DNA of 64,000 nt from NCBI GenBank assembly GCA_965112155.1, contig OZ218105.1. The stretch is one strand, 5' to 3'. The position numbers and the translations under genes were made by a program. The number at the start of each line of letters is the position of its first letter. Position 1 is the first letter of the stretch. The notes beneath the pieces are model-generated. The model was not told where the DNA came from, searched no databases, and saw only the letters and a program-made list of their open reading frames with translations. This DNA comes from Podarcis liolepis. Its lineage: Eukaryota. Positions 626-63,967 of this stretch are shown here, piece by piece.

Positions 626-666
626 TGGCCAACACTGACACTTGGAGGACTACTGAAGGAACTGCA
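626..666 (-). promoter_or_regulatory. CSE/CTCF-like promoter element of Y0 (CAGT core)
   Basis: Minus strand TGCAGTTCC-N15-AGTGTCAGTGTTGGCCA ~270 bp upstream of the ATG; aligns with the CGCT-containing element of the gamma-A exon. Confidence 0.75.
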
Positions 667-909
667 AGGAAAACCATGTTCACCATAACATAGAAAGATG
701 GAGCTAAAATAATGCACGTTTCCACAATGTGAACTTTTTCTTTAGCCAATTGCAAGTGGAGAATTTGAAAAAGTTTTTCCTTGTTTCACCTTCGTTTAGC
801 ATATTACTTTTATTGTCCACACCTTCAGCAACAAAGGCTTCCAGGGTGGGGTACAGGTCCAAAAAAGCAATATAAATAAAACAAAAATAAAACAAACTAC
901 ACTCATAAT

Positions 910-1078
910 AGAGACCAACTAAGTTTGTTATTGGTATGAGTTTTCGTGTGCATGCACACTTATTCGTGCATGCACACGGAAGCTCATACCAATAACAAAC
1001 TTAATGGGTCTCTAAGGTGCTACTGGAAGGATTTTTTAAATTTTGTTTTGACTACGGCAGACCAATATACCTACCTGT
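910..1078. mobile_element. Short Penelope-like retroelement remnant with inverted 5' segment and 15-bp target-site duplication
   Basis: Long inverted repeat ~911-1011; direct repeat AACTACACTCATAAT at 895-909 and 1079-1093; ...GGTCTCTAAGGTGCTACTGGA... resembles squamate Penelope ends (family from recall). Confidence 0.6.
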
Positions 1079-4000
1079 AACTACACTCATAATGTTTGGT
1101 TATGAATAGATTTCATTTATTTTCTAAGTGGCCTCAATCCAGCTCCCTTTCAAAATGGGATTGGTGGCTCTGGCAGATTTTCATTATTCCCCTTACACAT
1201 ACATGCAAAAGAAGCACATTTTAAAATGCAATAGAAGGCCCTTTGAGATACTAGGTGTGGATAAACTTATGGATAATTCCCCCCCCCCCGCTTCACTCAG
1301 TTCCCTTCAGTAACAAAGTGAAGTATGGGCTCTCTTTTCCCTGCTACTCTTCTCAGTAACCTCAGTTCATGGTAGATGTGGGCAGAGATGGCAGTTAGCG
1401 TTTTGCAGACATATTCAAAGGAAGATTCCTCTTTTGCCTTCCTTGTCAATAATGGGTGTAGCTTCTTCATACACTAGGACTTTGACTGAGGAGGCTGCAG
1501 CTCCCAGAGGAGACCAGTGGCTCTCTCCAAGGTCTTCAGCAAAGGGATCAGAAGACAGCAGAGGAACACAGAGGCTAGAGCTACTTTCAGTGGCTTTTTA
1601 GATAGTACTGTGAAAATTGAGATTGCATCTGGGACTGCAGTTTCGCTTACATGAAGATGATACTCATGTCCACTTTTTATTGGTAATATGGTGACATTGT
1701 TAATATATATACTTGTGTGCAGTTATAACCAGTATATTTAACGTTCCCCCACCATATTACATATCTGTGTTGCACAAATAAACTGTGCCATTAATTTGAA
1801 GCAGAGAATTGAATCCTGTCATGGAAAACAGTGTGGGGTGGTTTTATGGTTTGAGAGTTTCATTATCACCAGTAGTTGCTGATCCTTGGTGATACTTCCA
1901 AGTAAAGAGCCTTCCTCCATTTCCTCAGGGAAAAAGTGGCGAATCTTCAAGGAGTGGTAATGACTTGCCAATGTTAACAGATAAAAGAGACAGAGTGATA
2001 AAAGAATTGTAAGTCTAAGGTGTTAGAAGCAAGATCTCCTGATTCAGAGGTATAAATAGGACCAATGTGAGCAATTTTGTTAGCAGGTTTTATTGAAAAT
2101 ATGCCACCGTGGTCTTTAGGAGGTGGCTTGCTTTGGGTGGTGGGGATAGATTGAGTTGTAACTTCCTGTCAACAGCTAAAACAGTCCTGCGTGGCACCCC
2201 CCATGCAATTTCAGTGAACAAGGAAACTCTCTTTGCTGCTCCTAAGACAAATCATAGAAATGCAAACAGGCCTTGTGCCGTGTTCAGACATATCCAACAA
2301 GAGCCTGACATTCTTTATAAAGTTATCCAACTCCATCCAGAACTGAAAGATTTTCATTGCTCTCATAGCTTCTCTCATTCATATTGCAGAAAGTTTTTTT
2401 TTAAAAAAATCATACAAAATACAAGGATGATAAATATACAATTACATATGGCTTGAGCTAACCGGAGGCAACTATAGGAGGACACACATCAAAACTACCC
2501 ACCGTTATGCGGCCACTGCCAGATCCACAGCCCTGCTGTTCACATTAGCCATAGCAGAATATGGAGATCCAGAATGACCTGGTCCGAGTCTGTTGCATGA
2601 CTGCAGCAAGACTGGCTCAGGATACAGCAGTTACTTGGCCAGCTCAGCCATGCCCCTGCCCTCAGAATGCCCCATTTGGGGATCTCCATTGGCTCCTGCA
2701 CATCCAGCAGGTAGAAGGTGATGTCAGCTGAGCCGAGAGTGCCAGGCAGGGGGACGTCTCTGCCTAATCCAACCCCGTTGTTCCCTAGCTCAGTGGAAAT
2801 GGGGGTTGGATTGCTTTGTGTATCATCACTGGCTTATTAAAATACCTGTCTGACCTCTTTAGACTCTCAGATGAGGCCAAATATTATTGCTCAAAATGTG
2901 AAATAAATTTGCCTTGTTATAATATCCTACTACACGAACATTTAACACACGATTGTTTTCTGTATGATGAAATTATGGGAGACTGAACCAATGGAAGGGA
3001 AAGAGCAGGGAGCCATTCCCCACTGGCAGAGACAATACTTGGCCATTATATGGCACTTCTGACTGTTAGGCCAGTGCTATTTATTGCACTGGTATTACAG
3101 ATTTGCAGCTGAGAATGAGAAAAAGTAACATGCCTAATGAGAGCAAAAGTATATGTGGCTTTAAATGTTTTATTACATTGAATGAAAATGCATTCTTAAT
3201 GGAAATAGATGTCATTGGGGGAGCAGGATCATGACCATGGGTGCAGAGACAGTATCAATGGGACCTTTCGTCTTCTCAGTGCAAATAATGAAGTGGGTTA
3301 GGATTTTTCTTGCAACTCTGCTTCTGCTGTCCCATCCAAGGGATCTATTTCCATTTTTAAATGCAATAAATCATTTAATGTCACCAAAGTTTGTGGCAAG
3401 AGCCAAAATTCAAATTACAGATCTCATGCCTATCAGCTCACATACTTGGCCAATAAACTAGGTGAGTTCTTACTTAGTATACAGGTTTAATTCCTGATAT
3501 CTCCAGTTTTTTAAAACATCTAATAAAACTAGGCTGAGAAACACCTGAGTTACCACCTACTGCTCATAAGGCTGGAAAATACTAATTAGATAGATTATTG
3601 ACCCTGTTTAGTAAACACACAACTGATCTATCCATATGAGTAAAGACATAAACTATTTCAGACACAGAATTAGAGGGCAGTAAATAAAAGTTCAAATATT
3701 TTGGGAAGCCTGGATTTTCCACAGATACTATTATTTGAGAACTAAATAACCTTTCCAAGAGGCAAGAAGGTCAAGAAAGAAGCTCCGAAAGAAGCATTCA
3801 ATTTAAACAAGAAAACCATCACAATCATGCAAAAATCGCTGAACAAGAAAATATATGAATATCTCTAATATTTGTCTCATGGTTGCTCTTTAAGCACTTA
3901 AGCTCTTGTGGGACAAGCTGTTTACAATTCTCCTATCTCTACACGCATTTGCTTGCAACAGAAACAACCACATATACAAAAAGTGAACTATGTGAACTCC

Positions 4001-4157
4001 CAAACCTCATTTTATCTGAAGAGAACAAGTATAAATGAGAGAATATGTCTCCAGTTCCATTTCTTCAGAACAAGTGCAAAACAAATAATATAAATGGCAT
4101 TAATGTCTAACTGAAAATATAAAGTGAAAAACCTTTGATTTGATAGCAAAACTTCAC

Positions 4158-6569
4158 CTGTATATTGGCTGAATCCCCATTACTGTTTGCAATCTCTTCA
4201 GCAATGAGAAAGGGATCATTTATCTCACAGGGCTGGTGACTGGTCATAGTATTGGAAATATTTCCCTTGGGAAATCCGAAATTGCTCTTCCTAGAGTCTG
4301 TAGTGAGAGAAACCTCCTGGCAGTAGGAGTGCAGAAATGCTCGGACTCCGTCAATCCCCACAAACTGTGAAACTGGAACTCCACTAAACTTCTCAGTTCC
4401 AGACTGTGAATATCTCCACCTATGAAGTTTAACTGCCAGTAACACAAGGAGGAAGATGAAGAACAAGCAGGAGACAAAAGCCACTGCAAGGACCAGGTAG
4501 AAGGTGAGGTCAGACGGAGGCTCCACAGGAGCTGAGATGCTGCTCAGGTCTGAGAGGATTGCAGGGATGGTGTCAGCCAGCACCACAGTCAGAGTGGCTG
4601 AAGCAGAGAGAGGTGGCTGCCCATTGTCCTTGACTAAAACCACCAGGCTTTGCTTGAGAGCATCTTTCTCCAGAAAGAAGCGGGCTGTCCTGATCTCTCC
4701 CGTGTGGAGCCCCAGAGTGAAGAGCCCTGGCTCGGTGGCCTTGATCAGCTGGTAGGAGAGCCAGGCATTCTGGCCAGAGTCCGCATCCACGGCCACCACC
4801 TTAGTGACCAGGTAGCCTGGCTCAGAGGAGCGAGGGGCCAGCTCTATCCCTGTGGAGCCATCAGTGGGAGGGGAGGGGTACAGGATTTGGGGAGCATTGT
4901 CATTCTGGTCCAGGATGAAGAGAGTCACTGAGACGTTGGAGCTGAGTGGTGGAGAACCTCCATCCTGGGCCTTGACCAGAAACTTCATCTCCCTCATCTC
5001 CTCATAATCAAAAGAGATCAGGCCATAGACAATCCCAGTCTCAGAGTTAATGGAGAGGAAGGAAGATACTGGGGAGTCACTGATGTTGTGCTCAATGATG
5101 GAATAAGTGACTCTGGCGTTCTCTCCACAGTCTGGATCATCAGCCTTCAGGGAAAATATGGAGGCCCCTCTTGGGTTGTTCTCCATTAAATACGAAGTGT
5201 AAACAGATTGCAGGAAGTGTGGAGGGTTGTCATTTGTGTCTAAAACCTCAAGTGGAATAACAATTGATGTGGAAAGTGGAGGGGTCCCGTGATCCGTGAC
5301 TGTGACAGTGATGTTGTAGGCTGCCACCTGCTCTCTGTCCAGGGCTCTTGCTGTCACCAAACTGTAGTAGTTGCCATAGGCTTTTGTCAGTAGAAAGGGG
5401 AGGTTGCTGGGGATAGAGCACGTGACTTCTGCATTCTCTGCCGAATCCTCATCTTGCACATTCAAAAGGGCTATTGCAGTCGCTGGTGGAGAGTTCTCAG
5501 GGATGGAGCTGATAAGTGAAGTTATTTCCAGTTTGGGTGCATTGTCATTTACATCAGTAACAAATATTATGACAGTTGAAGTGTCAAATAGCCCTCCACT
5601 ATCATGGACTTGGACCTCCATTTCATAAAGAGCAGAGTCTTCGTAGTCTAAGCTTCCTATGAGTGTTATCTCACCTGTGTGTGTATCTAAGTGAAATATC
5701 TGGGAAATCTTTCCCGTGATTTTTGCAAAGGAAAATGTCATTTCTTTGTTGGTCCCTTCATCCAAATCAGTAGCTTTTAATGTAACCACAATGGTTCCTA
5801 TAGGTAAATCCTCCCTTGCGCTCACTTCATAAATGCGTTGGCTAAAAATTGGTGCATTGTCATTCACATCCAGGACTGTAATGTGCAGCTGCGCAGTGCC
5901 ACTCCTGACTGGATCACCACCATCATATGCGGTGATGATAAGATTATGAACTGCTTCTTTTTCATGGTCCAGAGGTCTTTCCAACACAATTTTTCCATAT
6001 TGTTTGCCCTTAACTGATGTTTGGAGAATCAAAGAAAAATGGCTATTGTTGCTGAGTTTGTACCCCTGTAGAGAATTGTTTCCTAAATCAGGATCTTGAG
6101 CTTCCAAGAGGGGAAACTGGGACCCCAATGCTGCATTCTCGCTGATATTTATCACTAGTTTCTCTGACGGGAAGGTGGGCGCATGGTCATTGATATCTGT
6201 GACTTCCACTTCAACTCCATAAATTTTCATTGAATCTTCAACTATAATCTCAAAATTCAAAATGCATTTCTCTTCCTGACCACAGATCTCCTCTCTGTCT
6301 ATTCTCTTTGTGGTGTGCAAATGGCCACTCTTATAATTCAAAGCAAAATACTGAGTCCTACCTGGTGAAACAATGCGAATTCCACGATCTGAGAGCTCCT
6401 TTGCGTCCAGTCCAAGATCCCTTGCAATATTCCCCACCAAAAAGCCTCTCTCAGTTTCTTCAGGAATGGAGTACTGGATCTGTCTGGTGATGGCTTGGCA
6501 GATGTTAGCAAACAGAAATAAAAAGAAAACTCTCCTTTTGCAAGCTTGAGAATACTTTGCTGTTGCCAT
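4158..6569 (-). CDS. PCDHGA: Protocadherin gamma-A-like variable exon (804 codons)
   Basis: Six cadherin repeats (DxNDN, LDxE), EC1 C-X5-C, gamma-A-type motifs [46 protein letters not shown]. The ORF-track start at 6662 is TTG; the first ATG is 6569. Phase-0 donor CAG|GTGAAG at 4158/4157. Confidence 0.92.
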
Positions 6570-6754
6570 TCCTGGTCTGATATGAAGCTGTTGGGGAGAT
6601 CTGTGATTCAGGATGAAGGAGTGTTGCCAGAAAGGGTCTTGCAGCTGAGATCCCCAAAGCAAAAATGTTCACTGAAACTCTGATCTCTCAGCATTTTCTG
6701 AGCTGAGCTGCTCATCTGGGAAGGCTGAATTTCTCAGTGTATTTCTTAGCCTTG

Positions 6755-6796
6755 GTTGGTCAACAGCGACACTCAGAGTCACAGCCAGGAACTGCA
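6755..6796 (-). promoter_or_regulatory. Canonical clustered-Pcdh CSE (CGCT box; CTCF-like site with upstream module)
   Basis: Minus strand TGCAGTTCC-N14-AGTGTCGCTGTTGACCAA, CGCT at 6765-6768, ~200 bp upstream of the ATG. Confidence 0.85.
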
Positions 6797-6821
6797 CACA
6801 CTACATTTTTTTGTTTCGATT

Positions 6822-6949
6822 NNNNNNNNNNNNNNNNNNNNNNNNNNNNNNNNNNNNNNNNNNNNNNNNNNNNNNNNNNNNNNNNNNNNNNNNNNNNNNN
6901 NNNNNNNNNNNNNNNNNNNNNNNNNNNNNNNNNNNNNNNNNNNNNNNNN
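6822..6949. other. Assembly gap (128 N)
   Basis: Run of N. Confidence 1.
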
Positions 6950-7041
6950 AATTAATTACTAACCCGTTTTATCACTAAATGTCATGCTCGTGTTTCCTTG
7001 CTCTATCAATTTAATGCATTTATTTGCGTCAATACACAAGA

Positions 7042-7179
7042 CATATAATAGGATCACAGATTTTGAAGGCACCACAAAGGTGATCTAGTCCAATCCCCTG
7101 CAATTCAGGAATCTTTTTGTCCCACATGGGGCTCAAACCCACATTACGAGTCTCATACTCTACTGAACTGAGGTATCCC
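7042..7179 (-). mobile_element. Degenerate tRNA-derived SINE with CR1-like tail
   Basis: Minus strand begins GGATACCTCAGTTCAGTAGAGTATGAGACTC...GTGGGTTTGAGCCCCA (tRNA-like A/B boxes), followed by GGATTGGACTAGATCACC, typical of CR1 3' ends. Confidence 0.55.
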
Positions 7180-8100
7180 ACATAAGCGGGAATGCTGCTG
7201 ATGTGCACTCTGTTTCACAGATAAACAAAACCAGGTGAGTATTTATTTTAATTTATCATGAAACACCAAGTTATGCCTTGTAAGTGGATTCTTATTCTCT
7301 AGAAAAGGAGAGAACCCCAATAACCAACAAGTCAGTTAAACCTTCCTTGGTAAGATTAAGTTTTCTACATAGGTATGTAATGGGCACAGTTACCACATAA
7401 ACAAGTATGGAAATTTGTACACAGGAATCCTAATGTTAGAGGAAAATCATGAAAATCTTATGTTTTTATGCATTTTCCCTAGCTCTTGGAACATTGACTC
7501 CTAAATATATATAGTATTTTAAGAACATTTTTACTGGAAATATGTGTGTCTTTTCAAGGCTCAATACATCATAGCATCTACTAGGAATTCCTCACAAAAC
7601 ATTATGAGGGCGGGTGAGGGGAGGGAACTTGTAAAATAATTTCAAAGTAAAACATTCTAAAAAAAATTATATGAAAAATGCAAACTAATGGATGCTTAAT
7701 TAAACATTTTCTGAAAATTTATTTATTATAATTATTTTCTTCAGCAGAAGGGCTGGAATAATTCTTTTTTGAATCTTTCCTAAGTTGTTAGATGTCTGTC
7801 AATCAGCATTTATGGAATGCATGTATCCAGAACAGTTATTCTTGGTCCCTAGTAGGAATCTGGCTACTCCAAGAGTTCTCCTGTAAATGCAAACTACGCA
7901 TGGTCCAGCTCTTTTGCGCCACAGCATCACAATGCTGACTCATATAACAGTATTCATCTAGCGTCTGCTCCCTCTGTCTTTCAGAAGTGCTATTTTCTGT
8001 GCTTTTGATTATAGTTTCCTTACAAGTCCTTACAGTTGAATCTTTACAATCTGCCAAATTCTGGAGGTAAGGAACATTTTCAGAGAATCCCATGCATCCC

Positions 8101-8180
8101 CCTTCCTTCCTTCCTTCCTTCCTTCCTTCCTTCCTTCCTTCCTTCCTTCCTTCCTTCCTTCCTTCCTTCCTTCCTTCCTT
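8101..8180. repeat. (CCTT)20 microsatellite
   Basis: Direct reading. Confidence 0.98.
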
Positions 8181-8982
8181 TCTGTTTACTGAGGGTACAA
8201 TAAACAGCTTCTATTTAGACAGCGCCTGTTTACTGAGGGTACAACAAGCAGCAATGTTAAGATCTCTCCCGCTTCTACTTAGGCAGTGGTGGGTCATAAA
8301 AATCTGTTCACTGGTATTAGTTCCATAGCAGACTCCTACTTGCTGGTGCCATGCAGAGCTCCTTCTGCAGCATTTGCTCCCCTGTGGCCAGAGCAGGATC
8401 TAACCACCAATGCAGGAACAATTACAGTAATTGCTCTACCAGCGCTTGGCATGGTATTGGATCCAAAAACATGAAATAGGTTTGTTGGACATCATAGGCT
8501 GTGTACACATGTAGCCTCTAAAATGCACAGGGGAAATCACCCCCCCCCTCACTTTGTACGTAGTTGTTTGCAGTGCTTCTTCTTCTTCTTCTTTTTTACA
8601 AAGAGAGGTGCAGGAACTCCCAAATTTGTTGAGCTTCTTTTTGGGAGCCATCATAAACACACGCCACATCAACTACCTTAAAAAGAGCCCAAAACACTCA
8701 CCACGCCAAGTCCCAATCCATCCCAGGTCTGCCGGAACGCTCAGGAGAGGTGCTACTGGAAAAAAGACCTGGTTGTTTGCAATTTCACACACCTTTGTGC
8801 AATAACATCATCCAAAGTAGCAGCTACTCTCTGTGCTGTCTGTACACAGGTGGGCATGTTTTCAAACTAGTGTGTAATGAAGTTCTGTGTTCCCCTCCCC
8901 ATCAGTACTTCCTATTATCACATACCTTAAAAAAGCACATATTTTTCAGTCTTTTGGGAGGGGGTTGGAAACTGATGTGTTG

Positions 8983-9028
<46 letters not shown>
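8983..9028. repeat. (ATATAC)n microsatellite
   Basis: Direct reading. Confidence 0.95.
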
Positions 9029-9797
9029 TTTTTATGGAGAGAGCTAAGTTGCTGTACTGCTCCGTTTTTGTTTTTGCCTCTTTCATTCACAGACAGGTTA
9101 AACAAGGTGAGTTGCAGTGTCACAGCCATGCAACATCAGTAGATCTGCTCCAATAGGAGGTGACCTAAGAAAGCATTCTTGGTCTACACTTGCATGCAAC
9201 AAGTGCTTGAGAAGTACAATCTTGGCACAAAACAGATTATAACCATTCCAGAAGGATACACCTAAAATGACAAATAGTGTGGGACAGGGCTGACATCGGG
9301 ATGACGTGTGCACAGCACCCCCAAAAGGCGTATCTGAATCCGGCACTGAATGCACATTATCATGCAGTTTGTACACACCATTACTGGTATATTTGAACTC
9401 ATATGCTCTAGATGAAGGAGGATGTCAAAGGATTGATAGATTAGAGACTTCGGCAATTAAGTAGTATATGAAAATACATTAAATGAAAAGATTGTGATAA
9501 TTACATTATGACGGTCAGGAACTGAGAGCAATAGAAAGACAAAGTAAGAGAGTGATACAAGAAATCAAGATATCTAATTCAGAAGGATTTTATGATACTG
9601 TAGAGGTTTCCTTGGAAAATAACAGAAGTAGTTTGATTTTGATTTGTCCACATTAATGGTAATAGCCCCTATTATTGTTCTGTATAATAGCCCACAAGAT
9701 GCAATTTCCCCCCATTAATTAAATTCATTAAATTTCATCTTACGGTCTGTCTCACAACACCACACAGTATACCCATGCACAGAATTCCATTCCATGA

Positions 9798-14349: not shown

Positions 14350-14390
14350 TGTCCAACAGTGACACTGTGAGTCTGAAGCAGAGAACTGCA
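14350..14390 (-). promoter_or_regulatory. CSE/CTCF-like element of X1 (CACT core)
   Basis: Minus strand TGCAGTTCT-N15-AGTGTCACTGTTGGACA ~250 bp upstream of the ATG. Confidence 0.75.
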
Positions 14391-18092: not shown

Positions 18093-20513
18093 CTCTTCAC
18101 CATTCGCCATCTCAGACTGAAAATTGTTTCCTTCATTGCCTGTAAAAGGAACACTAGGTTTCTCACTGCTAAGAATATTGTCTACCATCTGAGCACTGGG
18201 TGTCAGGAAGGCAAACTCATTCTTCCTGGTCTCAGAAGACAGACACAGCTGGTAGGAATAGGGCAAAGTCCCATCTTCAAAGTTGGGTGGGAAGATGGCA
18301 CCATTCTTGGAATGGGGAACAGGACCAAAGCACTGTAGGAACCTGGGATGCCCTGATTGACGGAGCTTCATTGTAACGGCCAGAATCACGGTCAAGAGGA
18401 ACAAGAAGGAGATCACAGCTAAGGCCAGCACCAAGTAGAACTGCAGGTCAGACTGATACTCCGAGCTGCTGGGTTGGCTCTTCATTTCCGGAAGGGCCTC
18501 CTGAAAGTTCTCAGCAAACACCAGGTTCAGAGTCATGGTGGCCGAGAGAGACGGCTGTCCGTTATCCTTCACTATAATGATCAGTCTCTGTTTCACAGCG
18601 TCTCTCTCCACAAAGGCCCTGGCGGTCCTGATCTCTCCAGTATGAGAACCAACCGTGAAGAGTGCCGGCTCAGTGGCCTGAGTCAGGTGGTAGGAGAGCC
18701 AGGCATTGTGTCCAGAATCTGCATCCACGGCCACCACCTTGGTGACAAGATAATCTGCCTCGGCCGAACGAGGCACCATCTCAAACAAGGCTGAGCCCTT
18801 GGCTTCTTGTGAGGGGGACAGGATACGAGGGCTGTTATCATTCCTGTCAAGAACAAACACCCTGATGGTCACATTGCTGCTGAGAGGGGGAGAACCCCCA
18901 TCTTGGGCCTTCACTTGCAGCCGGAACTCTCTGAATTGTTCATAGTCAAAGGATCTCTGGGCATAGATGGTGCCAGTCTCTGAATTAATGGAGATATAGG
19001 AGGAGATGGGAAACTCCTCAATGTTGCTGTTGAGGATGGAGTATGTGATCCGTGAGTTCTGGTCCGTATCAGGATCCGAAGCTTTGATGGTGAAAATGGA
19101 GGCACCTGAAGGATTGTTTTCTGGCACATAGATGTTGTAGGATGGTTTCTGAAAAGTAGGGGCATTATCATTGATATCCGAAACCTGTAGTGAGATTGTT
19201 TTGTGTGTGGAAAGAGGCGGAGTTCCTTTGTCAGTGGCTGTGATTGTAATATTATATGCAGGAGTTTTTTCTCTGTCCAAAAGGCTGACTGTCAGAAGTT
19301 TGTAGAAATTGTTAGATGAGGAAATAATCTTGAAGGGCAAATCACTGTTTAAATAGCAGGTAACTTTTCCATTATCACCGGCATCTTTGTCATTTACATT
19401 GATCAGAGCAATTAAGGTTCCAGATGGTGAATCTTCAGGAACAGGGCTGAACATGGAGGTTAAGGTCACATCCGGGGCATTATCATTCTCATCAAGAACC
19501 CTTATCTCAATATTGCAATGAGTCACCAATCCTCCGCCATCTTTTGCAGCAACCGTCATAGTATATTCATCGTTGTCCTCAAAATCCAGTCGCTCCAAGA
19601 GGGTGATTATGCCAGCAATGGGATCTAGACTGAATTTCTCTTGGGAAGTTGCTGGTATGTTGCTGAAATGATACCTGATTTGGGCATTTGTACCATCATC
19701 ATCATCAGAGGCTATGACCTGGAGCACCGTGGATCCAATAGGAGCATTTTCACTCAAACTGACCTTGTACACCTCTTGAGTGAAAATGGGAGGGTTGTCA
19801 TTGGCATCGGTGATATTAATCCGTATCTGGGCTGTTCCAGTTTTTCTAGGCTCACCCCCATCCATTGCGGTAAGTACTAAGTGAAGGGTTTGTTCTTTTT
19901 CCCGATCCAAAGATTTCTGCAACACCAATTCTGCATATTTATTTCCATCTTTTCTCTCTCTAACTTCCAAATTGAAGTACTGATTGGAGCTCAGCTGGTA
20001 ATCCTGTAGGGCGTTCATCCCAATGTCAGGATCTTCCGCTTTCCCAAGGAGAAATCGAGTGCCTAGTAAAGTGGATTCAAGGATCTCTAAATTGATATTG
20101 CTATTCAGGAACTGGGGCGCATTATCATTAATATCCTGGATTTCTACTGTTACATGGAAAACATTCAGCGGGTTTTCCACCACAACTTCAAACTGAACAA
20201 AGCAAAGTGGATTTTTGCCACATATCCCCTCCCTATCAATCCTGTCATTTACATAGAGGTTTCCATTCTCTGCATTGATACTGAAATGCTGCATTTTAGC
20301 CACAGACACAGTGTGCAGATTGCGATGTTTTAGTTCTTTGGCGCTCAGTCCCAGGTCCTTGGCGAGGTTCCCCACAACGGAACCCTTTGCCATCTCCTCA
20401 GGGGTTGAATAATGAATCTGCTCTGATGCAGCCCAACAGGTAAAAGACAAGAGAGAGAGAAGCAGTACTTGCCTTGTGAGTGCCCTGCCATTCCCTGGGT
20501 GCCTTCTCTCCAT
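18093..20513 (-). CDS. PCDHGB: Protocadherin gamma-B-like variable exon, class Y (Y1; 807 codons)
   Basis: Intact ORF with six EC repeats, TM and gamma-B motifs; donor GAG|GTAAGA at 18093/18092. Confidence 0.92.
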
Positions 20514-20785
20514 CTGGCTGGTTCTCTCAAAAACAGGCTGCTTCCTTTTCTCAGTTTCCTATGCTCAAGCTCTCACAGTGATGAAGGAAACAACATGAGG
20601 TATCACTGAGGAAGAATAAATTTCCCTTGTTCTTATAGGTGTTCAAAGCAAAAGAGATTTTTCCTTCTCTGCAAGAGTTCCCTGTCTCTGTGCTCTTCAG
20701 CTGGCCTGATCTGAACAACAGTGATGGGAGTTACTGCAGTCTAGGAAGCATCAATGGATCTCTGTCCTCTCTCTGGCTCTCATAC

Positions 20786-20826
20786 TGGCCAACACTGACA
20801 CTTAGAGGACCACTCAAGGAACTGCA
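20786..20826 (-). promoter_or_regulatory. CSE/CTCF-like element of Y1 (CAGT core)
   Basis: TGCAGTTCCTTGAGTGGTCCTCTAAGTGTCAGTGTTGGCCA on the minus strand. Confidence 0.75.
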
Positions 20827-22580
20827 AGGAAAACCATGTTGTGCAATGTACAGTACTTTCCCTTTAGCAAATTTCAAGTTATTTGCTTTCAGTTTGTACA
20901 CATTAAAGCAACAGCTCCTCTGATTGCTGCGCATAACAGGTCACAAGACTCAAAACCCAGTCTGGAGATATACAGCCTCTTGAAAACATGTTTTGCCTTG
21001 ATGTCTGTCCCACTGAAATTGAACCCTGTTGAATGGAAGCTACATAGCCAAGAGATCACCAGCAGAGCATTGCCTCACTTTAACACGCTTATAGTCCTTT
21101 GTCCACCAGTCTATCACACAACATCAGGACACACAATTCCTTTCATTAAAATGTAACAACATAAGAAGAGCCTTGATGGATCAGACCCAAGGCCTTTCTT
21201 GTTAAGCAACTTGTCTCCCACTGTGGCATTTGGAGGCCTCCTACTTCTAGTTAGCACGACTTGCGGCCACCATGAAGTTGTCTATAAGGCATCCAAGTTA
21301 GTGGCCATCACAGCTTTTTGTGGGAGCAATTCCCATAAGTTATTTATTTATTAAAATGTGTAAAGTATGTGTGATTGTTCTGTATAAATAAAAATAATGG
21401 CTGGATACAAGTTTCAATAGTTTTATATTATACACTCAAAGAAAGCATACCGATTTATAAAGTTTCTAACAGTGTGTGTGCGTCTGTATTATCTTGAACC
21501 TTATTGTGCAAATTAAGTATGAAAATGTTGTATTTTTCCACAACAATGTTATCAGTCTCCGCACTTTGACTCTTACCATATTCATTAGTTTAACCATAGA
21601 TAATATGTCCCATACTCCACTCCTGTAAAGCTGGTGTTCTTAACCAGACACTCCACTCAACTTATACCAAATAGTTGTTCTTGCTATAGTTAACAAGTCT
21701 TGGACTACTACTCTGCTAGTATTAAACCCTTAATACAACTGAATAAAACAATCAGAATAACCGTTGATAAAGTGTATCCTGTTATTGTTTCAGCTTCCCT
21801 TATTATATCCACCTGGAACCTTTCATTTCAGGACATGCCCCACAAAAATGTTGCTTCCTAGCACTGGTTGCCTTGCACCTCCCACTTAAATTACTTGCTG
21901 TCCTGTAGATGTGGTTGAAATGTGGCACTGGCAGGACCATATCGCTTCTCCCTTGTCTTTGATCTATACTAAATATTTTAAGCATTGTATTTTCTCCGAA
22001 TAAAGAAGTTGTTCCACCCACTTGACCATCTTAGTTGCGCTTTTCTGAGCATTCTGCATTTCATACAAGTTCTTTGTATGTAAATCTTCCAGAGAAGTTC
22101 AAAACACTCCAAAAGATCTACTATGAACAAATAGGAAGCATTCATGTTTTACACATTTTTCAGTTAACTCGAATCAGAACAGGATGAATAAACTATGTGA
22201 GTGAACGAAGTAAAAATCCACATATCTAACCTCTAGGAGGAACTAAAAAATAACTACTGTATATAATGATGGTGATATTTTAATAATCTACAGGAAGAAA
22301 ATTACAAGGAGGAAGAACAGGATATAAATTCCATAATTCATGAAGACTCACCTGAACGTCATTTTCAGACTTAGCCTCTGTCATTGCAATTTGTAGACTA
22401 CTTGTAAAAAAAGTTTTCTACAGTCTGAACAACTGGTGCTAGTAATATAATTTGATTTTTTTTAGTTCTCTCATTTAGCAAATTAGGCAGTTAAGAGGAA
22501 GACAGCTAAAAATACTAGTTATGCTCATACAAGGAACAAGGTTGTGATGCCAACATCACAGTTTCTGAAACAAAGCTTAC

Positions 22581-25249: not shown

Positions 25250-25290
25250 TGTCCAACAGTGACACTGTGAGTCTGAAGCAGAGAACTGCA
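25250..25290 (-). promoter_or_regulatory. CSE/CTCF-like element of X2 (CACT core)
   Basis: Identical to the X1 element. Confidence 0.75.
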
Positions 25291-32031: not shown

Positions 32032-32072
32032 TGGCCAACACTGACACTTAGAGGACCACTCAAGGAACTGCA
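32032..32072 (-). promoter_or_regulatory. CSE/CTCF-like element of Y2 (CAGT core)
   Basis: Identical to the Y1 element. Confidence 0.75.
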
Positions 32073-37865: not shown

Positions 37866-37906
37866 TGTCCAACAGTGACACTGTGAGTCTGAAACCGAGA
37901 ACTGCA
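37866..37906 (-). promoter_or_regulatory. CSE/CTCF-like element of X3 (CACT core)
   Basis: As X1, with two spacer substitutions. Confidence 0.75.
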
Positions 37907-44001: not shown

Positions 44002-44042
44002 TGGCCAACACTGACACTTAGAGGACCACTCGAGGAACTGCA
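44002..44042 (-). promoter_or_regulatory. CSE/CTCF-like element of Y3 (CAGT core)
   Basis: As Y1, with one spacer substitution. Confidence 0.75.
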
Positions 44043-50046: not shown

Positions 50047-50087
50047 TGTCCAACAGTGACACTGTGAGTCTGAAGCAGAGAACTGCA
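50047..50087 (-). promoter_or_regulatory. CSE/CTCF-like element of X4 (CACT core)
   Basis: Identical to the X1/X2 element. Confidence 0.75.
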
Positions 50088-53229: not shown

Positions 53230-53308
53230 CTTATTTTGTTTTTGGTTCTTTGTTAATGTTCTTGATATTATTTTGTGGACTATGAGAGCTGTAATGCTTT
53301 GTGAATTT

Positions 53309-53380
<72 letters not shown>

Positions 53381-53598: not shown

Positions 53599-53645
<47 letters not shown>

Positions 53646-53782: not shown

Positions 53783-54893
53783 TTACTGATGATTTGTTTA
53801 TTATTTTATATTATTTTTATTGTGCTTGTGATGTTCTACTGTGTTATTATTTATGGTACAATAAGCCGCTTTGTGACTAATGTGAGTGAGTGTCCCATAT
53901 CTTCCTGCTGAAATCCTGCAACTTTTTATAATACCAATGTTCTGGTTTATTCTTTGTCCCACTTTCATTATACAGTAGTGCCCCTACAAATGGCAATAGT
54001 TTAACTAGCAAGTAGTGATATTTTTCATGTAAGTTTATGTAAATCTTATTACCTAGTTTAGATTTTGTTACCTCGCTCTGTGCTAAGGACTAATGCAATG
54101 ACAGCTGTTCTCTTTAAAATTGCAATAACACTGGTTAGGCAGCTCAAAACAACTAATAAAGAAGAATGATGTGTGGACAATCCAGTATACATTGACTATT
54201 AATACACTATTATTGTGTCAAATGTTGAAGAACAAAACAAAGAACAAAAAATTGCAATATCCCCTGAAAGTAGTATGTACTTATAAGCAAAAGTATGCAT
54301 ATCACTGATGATATTTTCTGCCAACAGAAAGAAGTGTATTTCCTTGATTATATAGTAAAAAAAATGACATACTCCAAACCACGTGCCATAAAAGGAGCAC
54401 AAAAACCTCACTTCTTATCATTTAATATTAAATTTATTTAAGCACTAAAGCTGAAATCGTAAGCCATCTTCCCTGGAAGTAAGCCTCGTTGAATTCAATA
54501 TAACTACTGGGTAGATATCCTTGGGATTGAACTGTCAATATAAAACAAAATAGAAAATGGAATACCCCAACTGACTACGAAATGGCTAATTGCACCAGGT
54601 GGTTTAGTCTCATCTACTTAGACTAGATAGGAAAGATGATGACTCATGAGGGCATTTATATTGCAAGCTGCCATGTGATCTTTGGATGAAAGGCAGAATA
54701 GAAAGCTAATAAATAATTAAAATGAACATAAAAAAACAAAATAAAGACCCACCTATTAATTTCTATATGAAAAACTAACCAAAGGCTGAAAAAGGCAGGT
54801 ACACTTGCAGTATAAAAGGTTGTATTGCAATGTCACTAAAGCTAAAGAACTACAGAGTGTACCATACATGTAACTGCAGAGAACAAATCTTAC

Positions 54894-57314
54894 CTCTTCA
54901 CCATTAGCCATTTCAGAATGAAAATTATCTCCACTGTTGCCTGTAAAAGGCACAACAGGTTTCTCACTGCCAATAATATTGTCTACCATCTGAGCACTGG
55001 GTGTCAGGAAGGCAAACTCATTCTTCCTGGTCTCAGAAGACAGACACAGCTGGTAGGAATAGGGCAAAGTCCCATCTTCAAAGTTGGGTGGGAAGATGGC
55101 ACCATTCTTGGAATGGGGAACAGGACCAAAGCACTGTAGGAACCTGGGATGCCCTGATTGACGGAGCTTCATTGTAACGGCCAGAATCACAGTCAAGAGG
55201 AACAAGAAGGAGATCACAGCTAAGGCCAGCACCAAGTAGAACTGCAGGTCAGACTGATACTCCGAGCTGCTGGGTTGGCTTTTCATTTCCGGAAGGGCCT
55301 CCTGAAAGTTCTCAGCAAACACCAGGTTCAGAGTCATGGTGGCCGAGAGAGACGGCTGCCCGTTATCCTTCACCATAATGACCAGTCTCTGTTTCACAGC
55401 GTCTCTCTCCACAAAGGCCCTGGCGGTCCTGATCTCTCCAGTATGAGAACCAACCGTGAAGAGTGCCGGCTCAGTGGCCTGAGTCAGGTGGTAGGAGAGC
55501 CAGGCGTTGTGTCCAGAATCTGCATCCACGGCCACCACCTTGGTGACAAGATAATCTGCCTCGGCCGAACGAGGCACCATCTCAAACAAGGCTGAGCCCT
55601 TGGCTTCTTGGGAGGGGGACAGGATACGAGGGCTGTTATCATTCCTGTCAAGAACAAACACCTTGACGCTCACATTGCTGCTGAGAGGGGGAGAACCCCC
55701 ATCTTGGGCCTTCACTTGCAGCAGGAACTCTCTGAATTGTTCATAGTCAAAGGATCTCTGGGCATAGATGGTGCCAGTCTCAGAATTAATGGAGATATAG
55801 GAGGAGATGGGAAGCTCCTCGATGTTGCTGTTGAGGATGGAGTATGTGATCCGTGAGTTCTGGTCCATATCGGGATCAGAGGCTTTGATGGTGAAAATGG
55901 AGGCACCTGAAGGATTGTTTTCTGGCACATAGATGTTGTAGGATGGTTTCTGAAATGTAGGGGTATTATCATTGACATCTGAGATCTGTAGTGAGATCGT
56001 TTTGTGTGTCGAAAGAGGTGGAGTTCCTCTATCAGTGGCTGTGATTGTAATATTATATGCAGGCGCTATTTCTCTATCCAAAGGACTGTCTGTCTGGAGC
56101 TTGAAGTAATTGTTTGATGAGGGAAGAACTTTGAAGGGTAAATCATCCTGTAAATAGCAAGTAACCTTCCCATTATCTCCACTATCTCTGTCATTTACAT
56201 TGATCAGAGCAATAACTGTCCCTGGCAGAGAATCTTCAGGAACAGGGCTGAACATGGAGGCTAAGGTCACATCCGGGGCATTATCATTCTCATCATGAAC
56301 CCTTAGCTCAATGTTAGAATGTGTCATCAAGCCACCTCCATCTTTTGCAGCAACTGTCATTGTATATTCATCGTTGTCCTCAAAATCCAGTTGCTCCAAG
56401 AGGGTGATTGAGCCACTGATGGGATCCAGCTTGAATTTCCGTTCGGCAGTTGCTGGTATGTTACTAATATGATACCTGATTTGGGCATATAAACCTTCAT
56501 CCTTATCAGAGGCTGCAACCTGGATAACAAGTGACCCAACAGGAACATTTTCAGATAAACTGACCTTGTACACCACTTGAGTGAAAACAGGCGGGTTGTC
56601 ATTGGCATCAGTGACATTAATCCATATATGAACAGTCCCAGTTTTCCTAGGCTCACCCCCATCCATAGCGGTAAGAACCAAGTGAAGGGTCTGTTCACTT
56701 TCTCGATCAAGAGGTTTCTGTAGCACCAGTTCTGCATATTTATTTCCATCTTTTCTCTCTCTAACTTCCAAAGTGAAGTACTGATTGGAGCTCAGCTGGT
56801 AATCCTGGAGAGAGTTCATCCCAATGTCAGGATCTTCTGCTTTCCCAAGGAGAAATTGTGTGCCTAGCAGAGTGGATTCAAGGATCTCTAAATTGATATT
56901 GCTATTCAGGAATTGTGGTGCATTATCATTAACATCCTGGATTTCCACTAGTACATGGAAAATATTCAAAGGGTTTTCTACCACAACTTCAAAATTAACA
57001 AAGCAATGTGGATTTTTGCCACATATCCCCTCCCTATCAATCCTGTCATTTACATAGAGGTTTCCATTCTCTGCATTGATACTGAAATGCTGCATTTTAG
57101 CCACAGACACAGTGTGCAGATTGCGATGTTTTAGTTCTTTGGCGCTCAGTCCCAGGTCCTTGGCGAGGTTCCCCACAACGGAACCCTTTGCCATCTCCTC
57201 AGGGGTTGAATAATGAATCTGCTCTGATGCAGCCCAACAGGTAAAAGACAAGAGAGAGAGAAGCAGTACTTGCCTTGTGAGTGCCCTGCCATTCCCTGGG
57301 TGCCTTCTCTCCAT
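54894..57314 (-). CDS. PCDHGB: Protocadherin gamma-B-like variable exon, class Y (Y4; 807 codons)
   Basis: Intact ORF; donor GAG|GTAAGA at 54894/54893. Confidence 0.92.
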
Positions 57315-57586
57315 CTGGCTGGTTCTCTCAAAAACAGGCTACTTCCTTTTCTCAGTTTCCTATGCTGAAGCTCTCACAGTGATGAAGGAAACAACATGAG
57401 GTATCACTGAGGAAGAATAAACTGCCCTTGTTCTTATATTTGTGCAAAGCAAAAGAGATTTTTCCTTCTCTGCAAGAGTTCCCTGTCTCTGTGCTCTTCA
57501 GTTGGCCTGATCCGAATAGCAGGGATGGGAGTTACTGCAGTCTAGAAAGCATCAATGGATGTCTGTCCTCTCTCTGGCTCTCATAC

Positions 57587-57627
57587 TGGCCAACACTGAC
57601 ACTTAGAGGACCACTCAAGGAACTGCA
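57587..57627 (-). promoter_or_regulatory. CSE/CTCF-like element of Y4 (CAGT core)
   Basis: Identical to the Y1/Y2 element. Confidence 0.75.
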
Positions 57628-60009
57628 TTTTGTTCTACGAAAATAGACAGAGGTGAATAAATGCAGATATTTCTCCAGCACATACTATACCTTCCTTTCT
57701 GCTCACTGAGTGGAGCATTTGAGAAGGCTTTTCCTTGGTGTTCTTTCTTAGTGTACAGCTACCCTCATTTATGTTCGTGGCTTTTCAGTACTGTGAAAAT
57801 TGGGTTCATATCTGATACTGCAATTACATGAAGGTTATACACATCTTCATTTTTATTTTATTTTTTTGAAACATGGAAACATTATTATTAATATATAAAT
57901 ATCCAGTTACATAGTAAAATTTTATCTTAAAATTAATGTATTACGATAGTAGTTATGCTATAGTAGCACAAGAGCTGTAAGACAACTGTATTTTTGTTGT
58001 TGTTGCTTAAATAGAATATAAACACCCTATTGAAATTATTCTCTTTTTTTATCTCTTCTATATTGTTGGATGTCTATCAACATTTATGGAACAGAGTACA
58101 AGTTCTTCTCAGTGTTGGGTAGGAATTCCAAGAGTAACTTACTATTCCAAGAGTTCTCTCTCTGTCTGTTGAGGATAAGATAAGATGCAACACATGTAGC
58201 TTCTGTCTAGGCAGCACTAGGTAATAAAAGTGTGTTCGCTGGTATTGGTTCTACATCAGACTCTGCCACTGCCTCCTACCTGCTGGTGCCATACAAATGT
58301 CCTTGCTTAGCAGTTGCTCCCCTGTGATCAAAGCAGGAACTCAGCACAAGTGTAGGACCAATGGCTGTAGCTGCTCTACCAGCAGTAAAAAAAGGTAAAG
58401 GACCCCCGGATAGTTAAGTTCAGTCAAAGGCGACTATGGGGTGGCAGCACTCATCTCTCTTTCAGGCCGAGGGAGCCGGCATTTGTCCACAGACAGCTTT
58501 CCGGGACATGTGGCTAGCATGACTAAACAACTTTTGGCTCAACGGAACACCTTGACGGAAGCTAGGCATGATCCAACAGGATAAAATGTTTGTTGGCACT
58601 TTACATGTGAGCTCATATCATGATAATAGCATCATGAAGTTTGGGAACTGAGAAAAGTGGAGAGACAAGAGGTGTTCGAAGAAATCAATAGTGTCTAATT
58701 GAAAGAGTATATGATACAGGTCTTATTAGAAAATAACTAAAGTAATTTACTTTCAGTTTGTACGCATTAAAGGTAATAACTCCTCTTATTGCTCCATAGA
58801 ACTGCCTACAAGACCATAAACCCAACCTGGAGATGTGTATCCTCTTCAAATATTTTTGCCTGCCATATATCCCCTTGAAACTGGAACCCCACTGAACAGA
58901 ACTGACATTTCCAAGTGATCACAACCAGAGTGCTGCCTAATTTTCAACATGCTTCTAGTTTTTCATCTGCTAGTCTATCACACAGAAACATTGCACACAA
59001 TTCTATTTCATAAAAACATAAGAAGAGCCCTGCTGGATCAGGCCAGAGCTCTATTGAGTCCAGCATCCTTTCTCCCACTGTGGCCAACCAGATGCCCCTC
59101 AAAAGCTCTGCCCTTGGTCCACAGTCAGAGGTGTCTGGTACTAGACATAATATAGCCAATGTGACAATGGTTTTTTCTAATCCCCCTTTAAAACCACCCA
59201 AGTAGGTGACCATCATTGCACCTTGTGATAGTGATTCCCATTGTTTGTTTGTTTAAATAAGTAAATTATTTAGAAATGGTTTATATAAAACATACAATTA
59301 TCATTAAATTCCTATTATGAACTCAAATAAAGTATATAGCCTTCATAAAGATCTGAATAAAGTATGTGGGTCTGCGTTATCTTGAAGTTCATTGCACCAA
59401 TAAATTATGAAAAAACACACAGAAAGTTATCAGACTGCCTCCCCTCCCTGACTCTTAGTTGTACCATTGATAAAATATTCCATGCTGTAGTAATCCATTC
59501 CCCTAAAGTTGGTGTTCTTAGCCCCTGCTAAGACAAATAGTTGCTCTGGCCACAGACACTAACTGTTGGAGTAATTATCTGTCTTCTGTTTTACTAAATC
59601 CTTAAAATAACTAGATAAATCAATGAGAGGATCCATTGGCAAATTGCATCCTGTCATTATTCCATTTTCTCTTATTATATCCACCCACAAATTCTTCATT
59701 TAGGGACATGTCTCCCAAATATGTTGCATCCTAGCATTGGTTGAATTGTACTTCCAACGTCATCATTTGCTGTACTATAAATTTGACCAAACTGTGGGAG
59801 GCAGTGGAAGACAGGAGTGCCTGGCGTGCTCTGTCCATGGGGTCACGACGAGTCAGACACAACTAAACAAATAAACAACAACAACTAAAATGTGACGAAG
59901 CCACAGCAGTGTCATATACCATCAAAAAATAAACTTATACAAGTGTTTCTTAAGATTAACACTAATTGTTTGCTGCCATTTCCATTTTCACTGATCTGAT
60001 GTCCCAGAT

Positions 60010-60555
60010 CAATGACAATGAATTTTTCTAATCCCCCTTTGAAACCACCCAAGTAGGTGACCATCATTGCATCTTGTGATAGTGATTTACATTGTTTGTT
60101 TGTTTAAATAGGTAAATTATTTAATAATGGTTTATATAAAAACCAAATGGCTGGGTATACAATTATCATTAAATTCCTATTATGAACTCAAATAAAGCAT
60201 ATAGCCTTCATAATATCTAAATAAGTATGTGGGTCTGGGTTATCTTGAACTTCATTGCACAAATAAATTATGAAAAAACACACAGAAAGTTATCAGACTG
60301 CCTCCCCTCTCTGATTTTTACTGTATTAATTAGTTGAACCATTGATAAAATATTCCATGCTGTAGTAATCCATTCCACTAAAGTTAGTGTTTTTAGCCCT
60401 GCCCCCTGCCCACAATTATAACAAATAGTTGCTCTGGCCACAGACAGTAACTGTTGGAGTAATTATCTGACTTCTGTTGTTCTAAATCCTTAAAGTAATC
60501 ATATAAGACAATGAGAGGATCCATCGGCAGAGTGCACCCTTGTATTCTTTCAGTT
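60010..60555. repeat. Diverged local duplicate of ~59160-59675
   Basis: TGACAATG..TTTTTCTAATCCCCCTTT through CAATGAGAGGATCCAT occurs twice ~850 bp apart. Confidence 0.85.
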
Positions 60556-61257
60556 TCCCTTATCTTCACCCAATGGCCACAGGCTCCGGTAATATGGGGG
60601 AGAGGGATCTCTCTATTCATTTTCTCAACCTCGTTCATAATTCTATACAGCTGTCTCACTTCCCTTCTTGTAATTTATTTTATCTAAACGAAATATCCCT
60701 ACAGAAGTTGTTGCACCCATGGATCATTTGGGATGCCTTTTTCTGTGCTTGCTGTTATTTCACACAACTTCTTTTTATGAATCCTCCAGAAAAGCCACAT
60801 ACAGCCCCAAATTATACTACAAAGAAACAGGAAGCATTCATGTTTTATGCATTCTTCAGTTAAGTTGATCATAACAGGGCAATTAAACTGTGCTTTGTGT
60901 GAGTGAAAAAGTGCAAATCCTTATTTTTAATTGATGAGGGATGTATAAATAGCTATATATGTATGGTGACATGCTAATACCCCACAGGAAGATTGAACAC
61001 TCAAGCTGTATGCATGCTTACATTTCCTTTAATTCCTGAGATGAAGACTCACTATGCCGTTATTGTATGCCTCAGAATTTATGTTGCATCTAGCATTGCA
61101 ACTTAAAAGCTATGTGTAGGGAAAAATTTTCACAATCAGGACAATGGCTGCTAACACTGTAATTTCATTTTCCTGACCCCTTTATATAGTAAAATAAAAT
61201 AAAAATATTAGTTTTATTCTTATAAGGAGCAATGCTGTTTCTGAAAGCAAAGCTTAC

Positions 61258-63687
61258 CTGCTCACCAACCTCCTCTTTGGCACTGGCATCCCCACAGTTG
61301 CCATCCACAAGAACCACCTGAGAGCTATCATTGCATAGCAAGTTTTCTGCCACCTGGATATGGGGTTTTGGGAAAGAGATCTCCTCTTTCCTCATCTCTG
61401 ACGATAGGCAGAGTTGGTAGGAATAAGGTAAAGTTCCTTCTTCATAGTTTGGTGGAAATATGACCTGTGCCTTAGAAAAAGCATTAGGTTCGAAGCACTG
61501 GAATAATTTGGGATTTCCTGATTGTCGAAGTTTCATGACAATGACCAGTATCACCGTCAGGAGGAATAAAAATGAGATCAATGCCAAAGCCAGCACCAAG
61601 TAAAACTGGAGGTCAGAATGATGTTCTGTGTCACTGGATTGCCTAGTCATTTCTGGAAGTGCCTCTTGGAAGTTCTCGGCAACCACAAGGTTGAGGACCA
61701 CAGTAGCTGAGAGCGGAGCCTTCCCATTGTCCTTCACCAAGATGACCAGCTTCTGTTTCACAGCATCTTTCTCCAGAAGGGCTCGTGATGTCCTGATCTC
61801 TCCCGTGTGGGTCCCAATGGTGAAGAGGGCCGGCTCTGTGGCCTGCAGCACTTGGTAGGAGAGCCAGGCATTGTGCCCAGAGTCAGCGTCCACAGCCACC
61901 ACTTTGGTCACTAGGTAGCCTGGCTCTGCCGAGTGAGGAACCATCTCAAACAAGGCAGAGCCCTCAGCACCCGGGACAGGATACAGAACGCGAGGGCTGT
62001 TATCGTTTTGATCCAAAATGTACACCCACACAGTGGCGTTGTTGCTGAGAGAGGGAGAGCCGCCATCTTGGGCCTTCACTTGGATCTGAAACTCCCTGAA
62101 TTGCTCATAGTCAAAGGAGCGCTGTGCATAGATAGTTCCCGTCTCAGAGTTGATGGAGACGTAAGAGGAGAGAGGCAGCTCCTCCATGTTGCTGTTGTGG
62201 ATGGAGTAAGTGATACGTGAGTTGCGGTCCAGATCCGGGTCCGAGGCTTTGATGGAGAAAATGGAGGCGCCTGAGGGATTGTTTTCAGGCACAAAGACAC
62301 TGTAGGTTGATTTTTCAAAGGCAGGTGGGTTGTCATTGATATCTGAAATCTGCAGGGAGATGGTTTTGTTGGAGGAGAGAGGGGGGCTACCTTTGTCGGT
62401 GGCCGTGATTGTGATGTTGTATCCTGAGGCTTTTTCTCTGTCCAAAGGACTGTCTGTGAGGATTTTATAGTAGTTCTTTGAAGTTGACACTATTTTAAAT
62501 GGTACATTACCTTGTAGATGGCAAGTAATTTTTCCATTTTCTCCAGAATCTTTATCCTTTACGTTGATGAGAGCAATTAGTGTTTCAGAAGCAGAGTCTT
62601 CAGGAACTGGACTAGATAAGGAGGCCAGAATGATCTCTGGAGCATTGTCATTCTCATCTATAATCTTTATATCAACATTACAGTGAGCCACTAATCCACC
62701 TCCATCTCTTGCTTCAACTGTCATAGTGTACTTCTCTGTTTCCTCGAAGTCAAGGGTCTCCTTAATTGTAATTGTTCCACTTTGTGGATCTAGTCTAAAT
62801 TTCTCATAGACTTTTTCTGGGACTTTACTGAATGTGTAACTGATCCGACTATTTGAACCTTCATCCCTATCAGAGGCTTTTACTTGGAGTATGGGGGACC
62901 CCACAGGGGAATTTTCCCTCAGGCTAACTGTATAAACCTCTTGAGTGAAGACTGGTGGGTTGTCATTGGCATCTGTGACGTTAATCCATATCTGGGCAGT
63001 CCCAGTTTTTTTGGGTTCACCTCCATCAAGAGCCGTGAGGATCAACTGAAGCGAGTGCTCACTTTCCCGATCCAAAGGTTTCTGCAGCACCAATTCTGCA
63101 TATTTATGGCCGTCCAGACTATGCTTAATTTCTAATATAAAGAACTGATTTAGGCTTAACTGATAATTCTGGAGAGAATTAATCCCAATATCAGGATCTT
63201 CAGCTTTCCCAAGGGGAAATCTGGTACCCGGCAATGTAGATTCAATTATATCTAGTCTAATATTGGATTCTAGGAATTGTGGGGCATTATCATTAATGTC
63301 CTGAATTGCTACACTTACATGGAAAACATTCAATGGCTTTTCAACCATAGCTTCAAAATCAATAATGCAGTGTGTGCTCTCTCTACACATCCCCTCACGA
63401 TCTATCCTCTCATTCACATACAGGTTTCCATTTTCAGCATTGATAGTGAAATATGGCTTTTTACCTTCAGAAATGATATGCAGGTTTCTGTTCTTCAGTT
63501 CTCTGGCATTCAGACCCAGATCCTTGGCAAGATTTCCCACCAAAGATCCCTTTGCCATCTCCTCAGGGATGGAATAGTGAACCTCTTCCAAAACTGCTCC
63601 ACAGAACAAAGATGAAAATATCAGAAGGGTAATATGCCTTCCTGGTGTTTGAAAGCTCTCTCCATGAAGGATTCCTCTCATCTTCAT
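61258..63687 (-). CDS. PCDHGB: Protocadherin gamma-B-like variable exon, class X (X5; 810 codons)
   Basis: Intact ORF; ATG 63687; donor CAG|GTAAGC at 61258/61257. Confidence 0.92.
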
Positions 63688-63926
63688 TTTCCTCTTCGCT
63701 TTGATGAGCACAGGATTTCAGATTTCCACCAAGACAGGAGGTTTTTCACCCCCTAGTAAAAAAAAGAACTGGATCCTTTGGCTTTGTATGTGCTGCAGTG
63801 TTTTCTGTTTTCCAGCTGAAACGTTTGTTCCAGCGTCTGCTGGTTTTCCCGATGTGCAGTTTGGGACAAAGAGATCTCTCTGCAGAAAGCATCAGTGCAA
63901 CTTCAGCTGCCCATGGATTGCCGCCT

Positions 63927-63967
63927 TGTCCAACAGTGACACTGTGAGTCTGAAACCGAGAACTGCA
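63927..63967 (-). promoter_or_regulatory. CSE/CTCF-like element of X5 (CACT core)
   Basis: Identical to the X3 element. Confidence 0.75.

Follow-up and report, generated by a model that had tools for sequence, protein, structure and literature searches.

In the textbook account of neuronal barcoding, a methylated promoter CTCF site lying in a CpG island locks unchosen protocadherin isoforms. The C of the CGCT box in the promoter element (CSE) is taken here to be CTCF core position 12, from its alignment to the CTCF consensus. Each alternate-promoter CTCF site of mammals is stated to contain a CpG (PMC7087399), and every variable promoter is described as flanked by prominent CpG islands (PMC10463633). 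It was a premise of the original prediction for this locus that CSE methylation blocks CTCF. A review from the Wu laboratory, according to which box methylation precludes CTCF, upholds that premise (PMC7811963), but other work does not: the main inhibition by methylation has been placed at core position 2, with position 12 tolerant (PMC10484683, PMC10325916, PMC10287918) and indeed methylation-insensitive in structures and in Methyl-Spec-seq (PMC10484683, PMC10287918), and in an EMSA the methylation of an alpha CSE left complex formation unaltered (PMC3333863). A methyl group on the opposite strand, which a CA box presents, is reported as the state that raised binding (PMC10484683, PMC10325916, PMC10287918), and only 29% of CTCF motifs are said to have a CpG at either of positions 2 and 12 (PMC10325916). 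A CpG-independent gate has been described in mouse neurons, where SETDB1/H3K9me3 blocks CTCF sites at Pcdh-gamma (PMC10762014), and the description of a Pcdh locus regulator restricted to therians (PMC11343191) provides a precedent for mammal-specific layers.

Several described systems lack such CpGs. The alpha CSEs of Xenopus tropicalis and zebrafish are reported without the CGCT box and frog gamma with it, in a paper whose CSE discussion, in its available text, mentions neither CpG nor methylation (PMC4978886). HS5-1b, in the mouse and human Pcdh-alpha enhancer, is a CpG-free CTCF site reported to be bound constitutively (PMC7087399, Jia 2020). Mammalian olfactory receptor arrays have CpG-poor promoters and are expressed from heterochromatin, and mammalian protocadherins are named as the exception to this loss of islands (PMC10463633). 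For reptiles, the anole protocadherin cluster has been laid out in the order delta-alpha-beta-gamma, the available text of that paper saying nothing on CpG, CTCF or motif (PMC2764143). A search of the full-text literature within reach turned up no paper describing, for reptile protocadherins, the loss of CpGs from CSEs or a lack of islands; supplementary data of papers beyond it may bear on mammalian gamma-B boxes.

The window analysed here, a 64,000-nt stretch of Podarcis liolepis DNA, carries on its minus strand ten full protocadherin variable exons, all with intact reading frames, and the start of an eleventh (Table 1). A CSE-like element lies 199-284 bp above the ATG in 11 of 11 promoters. 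All 11 shared elements were found on the minus strand where the original prediction had placed them, and their reported anatomy was borne out: the box reads CGCT at gamma-A only, CACT in five of five X copies and CAGT in five of five Y copies, and the spacing is N14 in gamma-A and N15 in all ten gamma-B elements. A recount likewise agreed that the stretch from CSE to ATG lacks any CpG in Y0 and Y1 (313 bp in each) and holds few in the other Y copies (Y2, 1; Y3, 3; Y4, 1). The X copies carry 4-6 CpGs over the same interval, and the box CpG of the gamma-A promoter is the only one which that promoter has. In three of the ten gamma-B elements a CpG falls within the spacer that separates the core from the upstream motif (63958, 37897 and 44032). 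Promoter identity is 93-98% among X copies, 95-97% among Y copies and about 63% between X and Y. The ten gamma-B promoters thus represent two lineages and two losses, and ten independent CpG losses within the window are ruled out.

Table 1. Promoter elements and associated exons in the 64,000-nt window (window positions; boxes and ORFs on the minus strand)
Feature	Position	Strand	Box	Exon ORF	Remark
Y0 gamma-B CSE	630..666	-	CAGT 637-634		upstream motif + core; ATG 353
gamma-A CSE	6761..6796	-	CGCT 6768-6765		sole box CpG of window
gamma-A variable exon ORF	4107..6569	-			single-copy lineage
X1 gamma-B CSE	14354..14390	-	CACT 14361	end 11622	likely ATG 14105
Y1 gamma-B CSE	20790..20826	-	CAGT 20797	20513-17967	
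X2 gamma-B CSE	25254..25290	-	CACT 25261	25004-22515	
Y2 gamma-B CSE	32036..32072	-	CAGT 32043	31761-29221	
X3 gamma-B CSE	37870..37906	-	CACT 37877	37632-35167	one spacer CpG
Y3 gamma-B CSE	44006..44042	-	CAGT 44013	43731-41293	one spacer CpG
X4 gamma-B CSE	50051..50087	-	CACT 50058	49800-47335	
Y4 gamma-B CSE	57591..57627	-	CAGT 57598	57314-54756	
X5 gamma-B CSE	63931..63967	-	CACT 63938	63687-61165	one spacer CpG

Within the coding sequence, CpGs peak in the EC6 region of all nine full gamma-B exons (12-15 per 400 bp, against 1-10 elsewhere), roughly 1600-2000 bp after the ATG, in the part most alike between paralogues; gene conversion may be the source of this peak. Some 300-400 bp above the Y1 CSE, at 21117-21217, there is a short interspersed repeat, recognised by the high depth and numerous loose ends of related-species contigs.

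In comparison with solved structures, Y1 is best matched by gamma-B4 (789 bits) and the ORF at 4107-6569 by gamma-A9, a mammalian comparison of subfamily identity that covers these two of the 77 alternate genes. The gamma-B (30 genes) and gamma-A (15 genes) groups form clades in a quick tree, with SH-aLRT values of 100 and 99. The wider survey took in 964 kb around the window and found one 5' delta-like, 12 alpha, two alpha-C, 20 beta, 15 gamma-A, 30 gamma-B and five gamma-C variable exons, a census that may have overlooked pseudogene fragments without the EC1 motif, and in which the labels alpha, beta, C-type and delta rest on position, the quick tree and known motifs. The delta-alpha-beta-gamma gene order is that of the anole (PMC2764143).

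Over this larger region the box CpG is kept in 6 of 12 alpha, 0 of 20 beta, 9 of 15 gamma-A and 5 of 30 gamma-B promoters, or 20 of the 77 alternate promoters, and is absent from the other 57. Loss specific to gamma-B, as originally proposed, therefore does not stand, since five gamma-B promoters retain CGCT and six gamma-A, six alpha and all 20 beta promoters are without it; the contrast between gamma-A and gamma-B is an effect of the window. At least one CpG is present in the 15-bp core of 28 of 77 alternate promoters (none in 49) and in the 39-bp footprint of 36. At core position 2 a CpG occurs in only 4 of 77, and in none of the 45 gamma promoters, the gamma-A promoter of the window included.

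CTCF normally requires C at core position 12. The beta elements have T there in 16 of 20 cases; position 12 aside, the cores of the beta genes (G000:C8:85030299-85141847, window-relative 276299-387847) are nearer to consensus than those of gamma genes. In one gamma-A and one beta variable exon (window-relative 216430 and 331088) the reading frame is interrupted and the CSE intact. Mammals have three C-like genes, as against five gamma-C genes here; the first of these (window-relative -29444) has a CSE with two core CpGs in a strong CpG island with o/e above 1, and the other four have no clear CSE.

None of the 77 alternate promoters lies in a CpG island by either of two island criteria, the best 500-bp o/e being 0.54, and five of the eight delta-like and C-type promoters pass. 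Island prediction in lizards is reported to be unreliable because of low GC, although unmethylated islands there have mammal-like o/e (PMC3583005); the alternate promoters of this cluster fail the island test on o/e alone. Gamma promoters that keep the box CpG did not differ in local CpG o/e from those that lack it (0.22 and 0.18; p=0.14). In our judgement the cluster-wide absence of islands outweighs the single base in importance.

The elements themselves retain the marks of CTCF sites. A strict form of the element pattern has 15 matches in 964 kb, all in the sense orientation and all at gamma-promoter positions, with none antisense, and so the element is not a chance occurrence. With subfamily-specific matrices the CSE was the best match, scoring at least 16, in 77 of 77 alternate promoters, although these matrices were derived from the very promoters that they scored; they were adopted because a first matrix scan misplaced two beta elements and scored most beta elements weakly. 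Counting one gamma lineage per cluster of recent copies (n=23), C2, G8, G10 and C12 are invariant in all 23, and position 13 is G in 14 and A in nine. Between gamma-A and gamma-B the spacing of the upstream motif differs by a single base, in keeping with the variable spacing of 5-6 nt described for CTCF (PMC10287918). The cores are weak, with 3-6 mismatches to the 14-base consensus. Weak cores are also described for mouse Pcdh promoter sites, those that lose CTCF in the R567W mutant being rich in upstream motifs (PMC11217373), and a report on defective CTCF cores finds that the upstream motif gives no rescue (PMC10287918), which speaks against CTCF binding at the poorly matching gamma-B cores. 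Taken together, the CSE elements are likely to be intact CTCF sites, as far as their sequence allows one to judge.

The weakness of the cores, with six mismatches in 19 of 30 gamma-B cores and T12 in most beta cores, might be read as decay, with CTCF binding weak or absent at many of the amplified gamma-B and beta promoters, which would then be rarely used. This appears very improbable, given the core positions that are invariant across the gamma lineages and the open reading frames that are intact in all ten full exons of the window. Transcription in a relative is at least suggestive in the same direction. In one stranded RNA run from a related species, 31 reads (23 of them only partly aligned) fell on 19400-22400. 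They have the expected strand, span a Y-type exon with its 5' leader and end near the CSE; depth is about 4 across the Y1 leader, falls to 0.75 in the bin that contains the CSE and reaches zero just upstream. These reads hint that a Y-type promoter fires and are silent on the box of the copy concerned; in related-species contigs over the Y1 element, no box difference appears among the 40 listed of 151 differences.

The forward-oriented promoter CSEs face reverse-oriented consensus CTCF sites downstream of the constant exons, judging from sequence. Past gamma constant exon 3 (-75986) they lie at window-relative -96616, -102490 and -116674, and past alpha constant exon 3 (434497) at 405626 and 403034. 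Forward sites were also seen at -138142 and -139432, downstream of the gamma constant exon 3 region, and the gamma-downstream sites (-96616 to -139432) are a candidate beta/gamma super-enhancer and boundary. The reverse pair at 405626 and 403034, located after alpha constant exon 3 and before the beta genes, is a candidate HS5-1 enhancer; a forward site at 402089 accompanies it, and a CpG-richer 10-kb bin adjoins it. In 8 of 12 alpha exons (G000:C8:85287084-85383044) there is a further forward CTCF-like site with at most three mismatches, about 360 bp into EC1 and roughly 650-720 bp below the CSE, at the position of the mammalian eCBS; C12 is found in none of the eight, which hence have no CpG there.

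The route by which the box CpG was lost was followed on promoter trees with the box masked, exon trees being confounded by conversion. These call for at least nine losses, four in gamma-B, two in gamma-A and three in alpha, one odd alpha element being left out of the count. All nine are CG>CA and none is CG>TG (p=0.002 against equal odds of the two changes), so that the C read by CTCF at position 12 is retained. Among 24 recent duplicates, with gapped and poorly conserved columns dropped, CpG columns of non-coding promoter DNA were variable in 11 of 17 cases against 44 of 397 other C/G columns (5.8x), and those of exons in 86 of 204 against 322 of 3368 (4.4x). CpG columns that mutate 4-6 times faster than others suggest that the nearby CpGs are methylated in the germline.

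Genome-wide, exact matches to the CTCF consensus end in CA 2558 times (64%) and in CG 1461 times, the reversed-consensus controls giving 56 and 61, and CA is thus an accepted core ending, as had been claimed. Of the cluster elements with C12, 20 of 60 have CG, a share indistinguishable from the 1461 of 4019 ordinary consensus sites (p=0.69), and the pattern may therefore be plain drift without regulatory meaning. On such an account position 13 alternates between G and A as it does at any CTCF site, the box CpG never served as the switch, and isoforms are chosen as in mammals, through regional methylation of the few CpGs that remain and through nucleosome occupancy. The reported scarcity of CpGs at positions 2 and 12 of CTCF motifs (PMC10325916) fits it well, as do the insensitivity of position 12 and the lack of effect of CSE methylation on the complex (PMC3333863). 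Drift does not, however, account for an alternate cluster devoid of islands when set against the mammalian state, nor for the sorting by copy number described below, and we regard it as a possible but unlikely explanation. The sparse CpGs that remain near the start sites, such as those of the X copies, could nevertheless carry a methylation signal, and in neurons non-CpG methylation may reach the CAC context as well.

None of the 28 gamma promoters that share 92% identity or more with a neighbour has the box CpG, which 14 of 17 single-copy gamma promoters keep; by lineage, the association of box state with amplification has a Fisher p of 0.0008. In simulations (20000 at each of five loss rates) no single rate reproduced both figures. 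Retention in 14 of 17 single-copy promoters goes beyond what fast neutral decay would leave, and suggests that the box CpG may still matter there. It is tempting to suppose two promoter classes. In the old single-copy isoforms the box CpG would still work as a switch; the amplified isoforms would have CpG-less, always-bound promoters, whether through selection relaxed by redundancy or through amplification favoured by the loss. A box whose methylation precludes CTCF, as reviewed in PMC7811963, would suit this. Given 5-7 losses, the simulated probability that all amplified promoters had lost the CpG is 0.001-0.03 at loss rates of 0.5-1.5, but it climbs to 0.24-0.68 at rates of 2.5-4. The sorting was moreover noticed post hoc and assumes no regain, and its six amplified clades stem from five losses and, to judge from gene order, probably from about three co-duplicated gene pairs. 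The alpha promoters are single-copy and yet half of them lack the CpG, and shielding of the site from germline methylation by bound CTCF predicts the same pattern without any switch. A division into two such classes consequently seems improbable.

On balance, and with some reserve, we favour an explanation in which the CSEs are likely CTCF-bound, their box CpG has been eroded by decay in an island-free cluster, and choice probably owes less to methylation of the site than to heterochromatin and looping. The elements would be protocadherin promoter CSEs whose box CpG was lost repeatedly, likely via deamination of germline-methylated cytosine; in alpha and gamma, selection for CTCF binding would have passed only CG>CA changes, and tandem duplication would then have multiplied the CA versions. 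The suggestion that such promoters may bind CTCF irrespective of methylation is sound to the extent that a site without a CpG cannot be blocked by methylation of its own CpG, for which HS5-1b is a precedent (PMC7087399). At most promoters, then, CpG methylation of the site itself would be unable to gate CTCF, and choice would likely rest on competition between CTCF and H3K9me3 heterochromatin and on cohesin looping to the reverse downstream sites, which is partly shown in mouse, with regional methylation as a likely secondary layer.

A more radical form of this, to which we give a low probability, would dispense with a DNA-methylation switch altogether: at island-free, germline-methylated and mostly CpG-blind promoters, choice would be made by heterochromatin and cohesin alone, or would be less random. 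Were it true, the methylation and demethylation circuit of the mouse would be an addition made in mammals, and gene amplification would have gone together with loss of the site CpG. Under the explanation that we prefer, isoform choice in the neurons of this animal likely leans less on DNA methylation than it does in mouse neurons.

By sequence the element is a genuine variant form of the known promoter element, with a putative regulatory consequence. The role of the box CpG itself is disputed, and CG and CA versions coexist here in one island-free locus. The cluster is thus a natural experiment, in which one brain could reveal the effect of the CpG on CTCF occupancy or on choice frequency, and which could also tell if the methylation layer is inherited from an ancestor or arose in mammals.

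The cluster resembles the mammalian one in having a single forward element about 200-290 bp above each alternate ATG, composed of a weak core and an upstream motif, with reverse sites downstream of the constant exons (PMC7811963, PMC11217373). It differs in that mammals, according to statements in PMC7087399 and PMC10463633, have the site CpG and the island everywhere, whereas here 57 of 77 alternate promoters are without the box CpG and none has an island. With the alpha CSEs of frog and zebrafish it shares retention of the CSE without the CGCT box outside mammals (PMC4978886). Those cases count in part against the original prediction, for which CpG-less cores were not to be commonplace in well-studied gamma-B promoters. 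There the loss is described for alpha; here it extends to four subfamilies, is repeated, and sorts with recent duplication. HS5-1b is alike in being a CTCF site without a CpG (PMC7087399). It is, however, a reverse-oriented enhancer site, whereas the elements described here are weak and forward-oriented, sit in promoters, and belong to an array from which each mammalian cell makes its own choice. Mammalian olfactory receptors likewise form tandem arrays whose promoters are CpG-poor (PMC10463633); by sequence the protocadherins here fit that pattern, to which those of mammals are the exception, but each promoter keeps a CTCF-like site.
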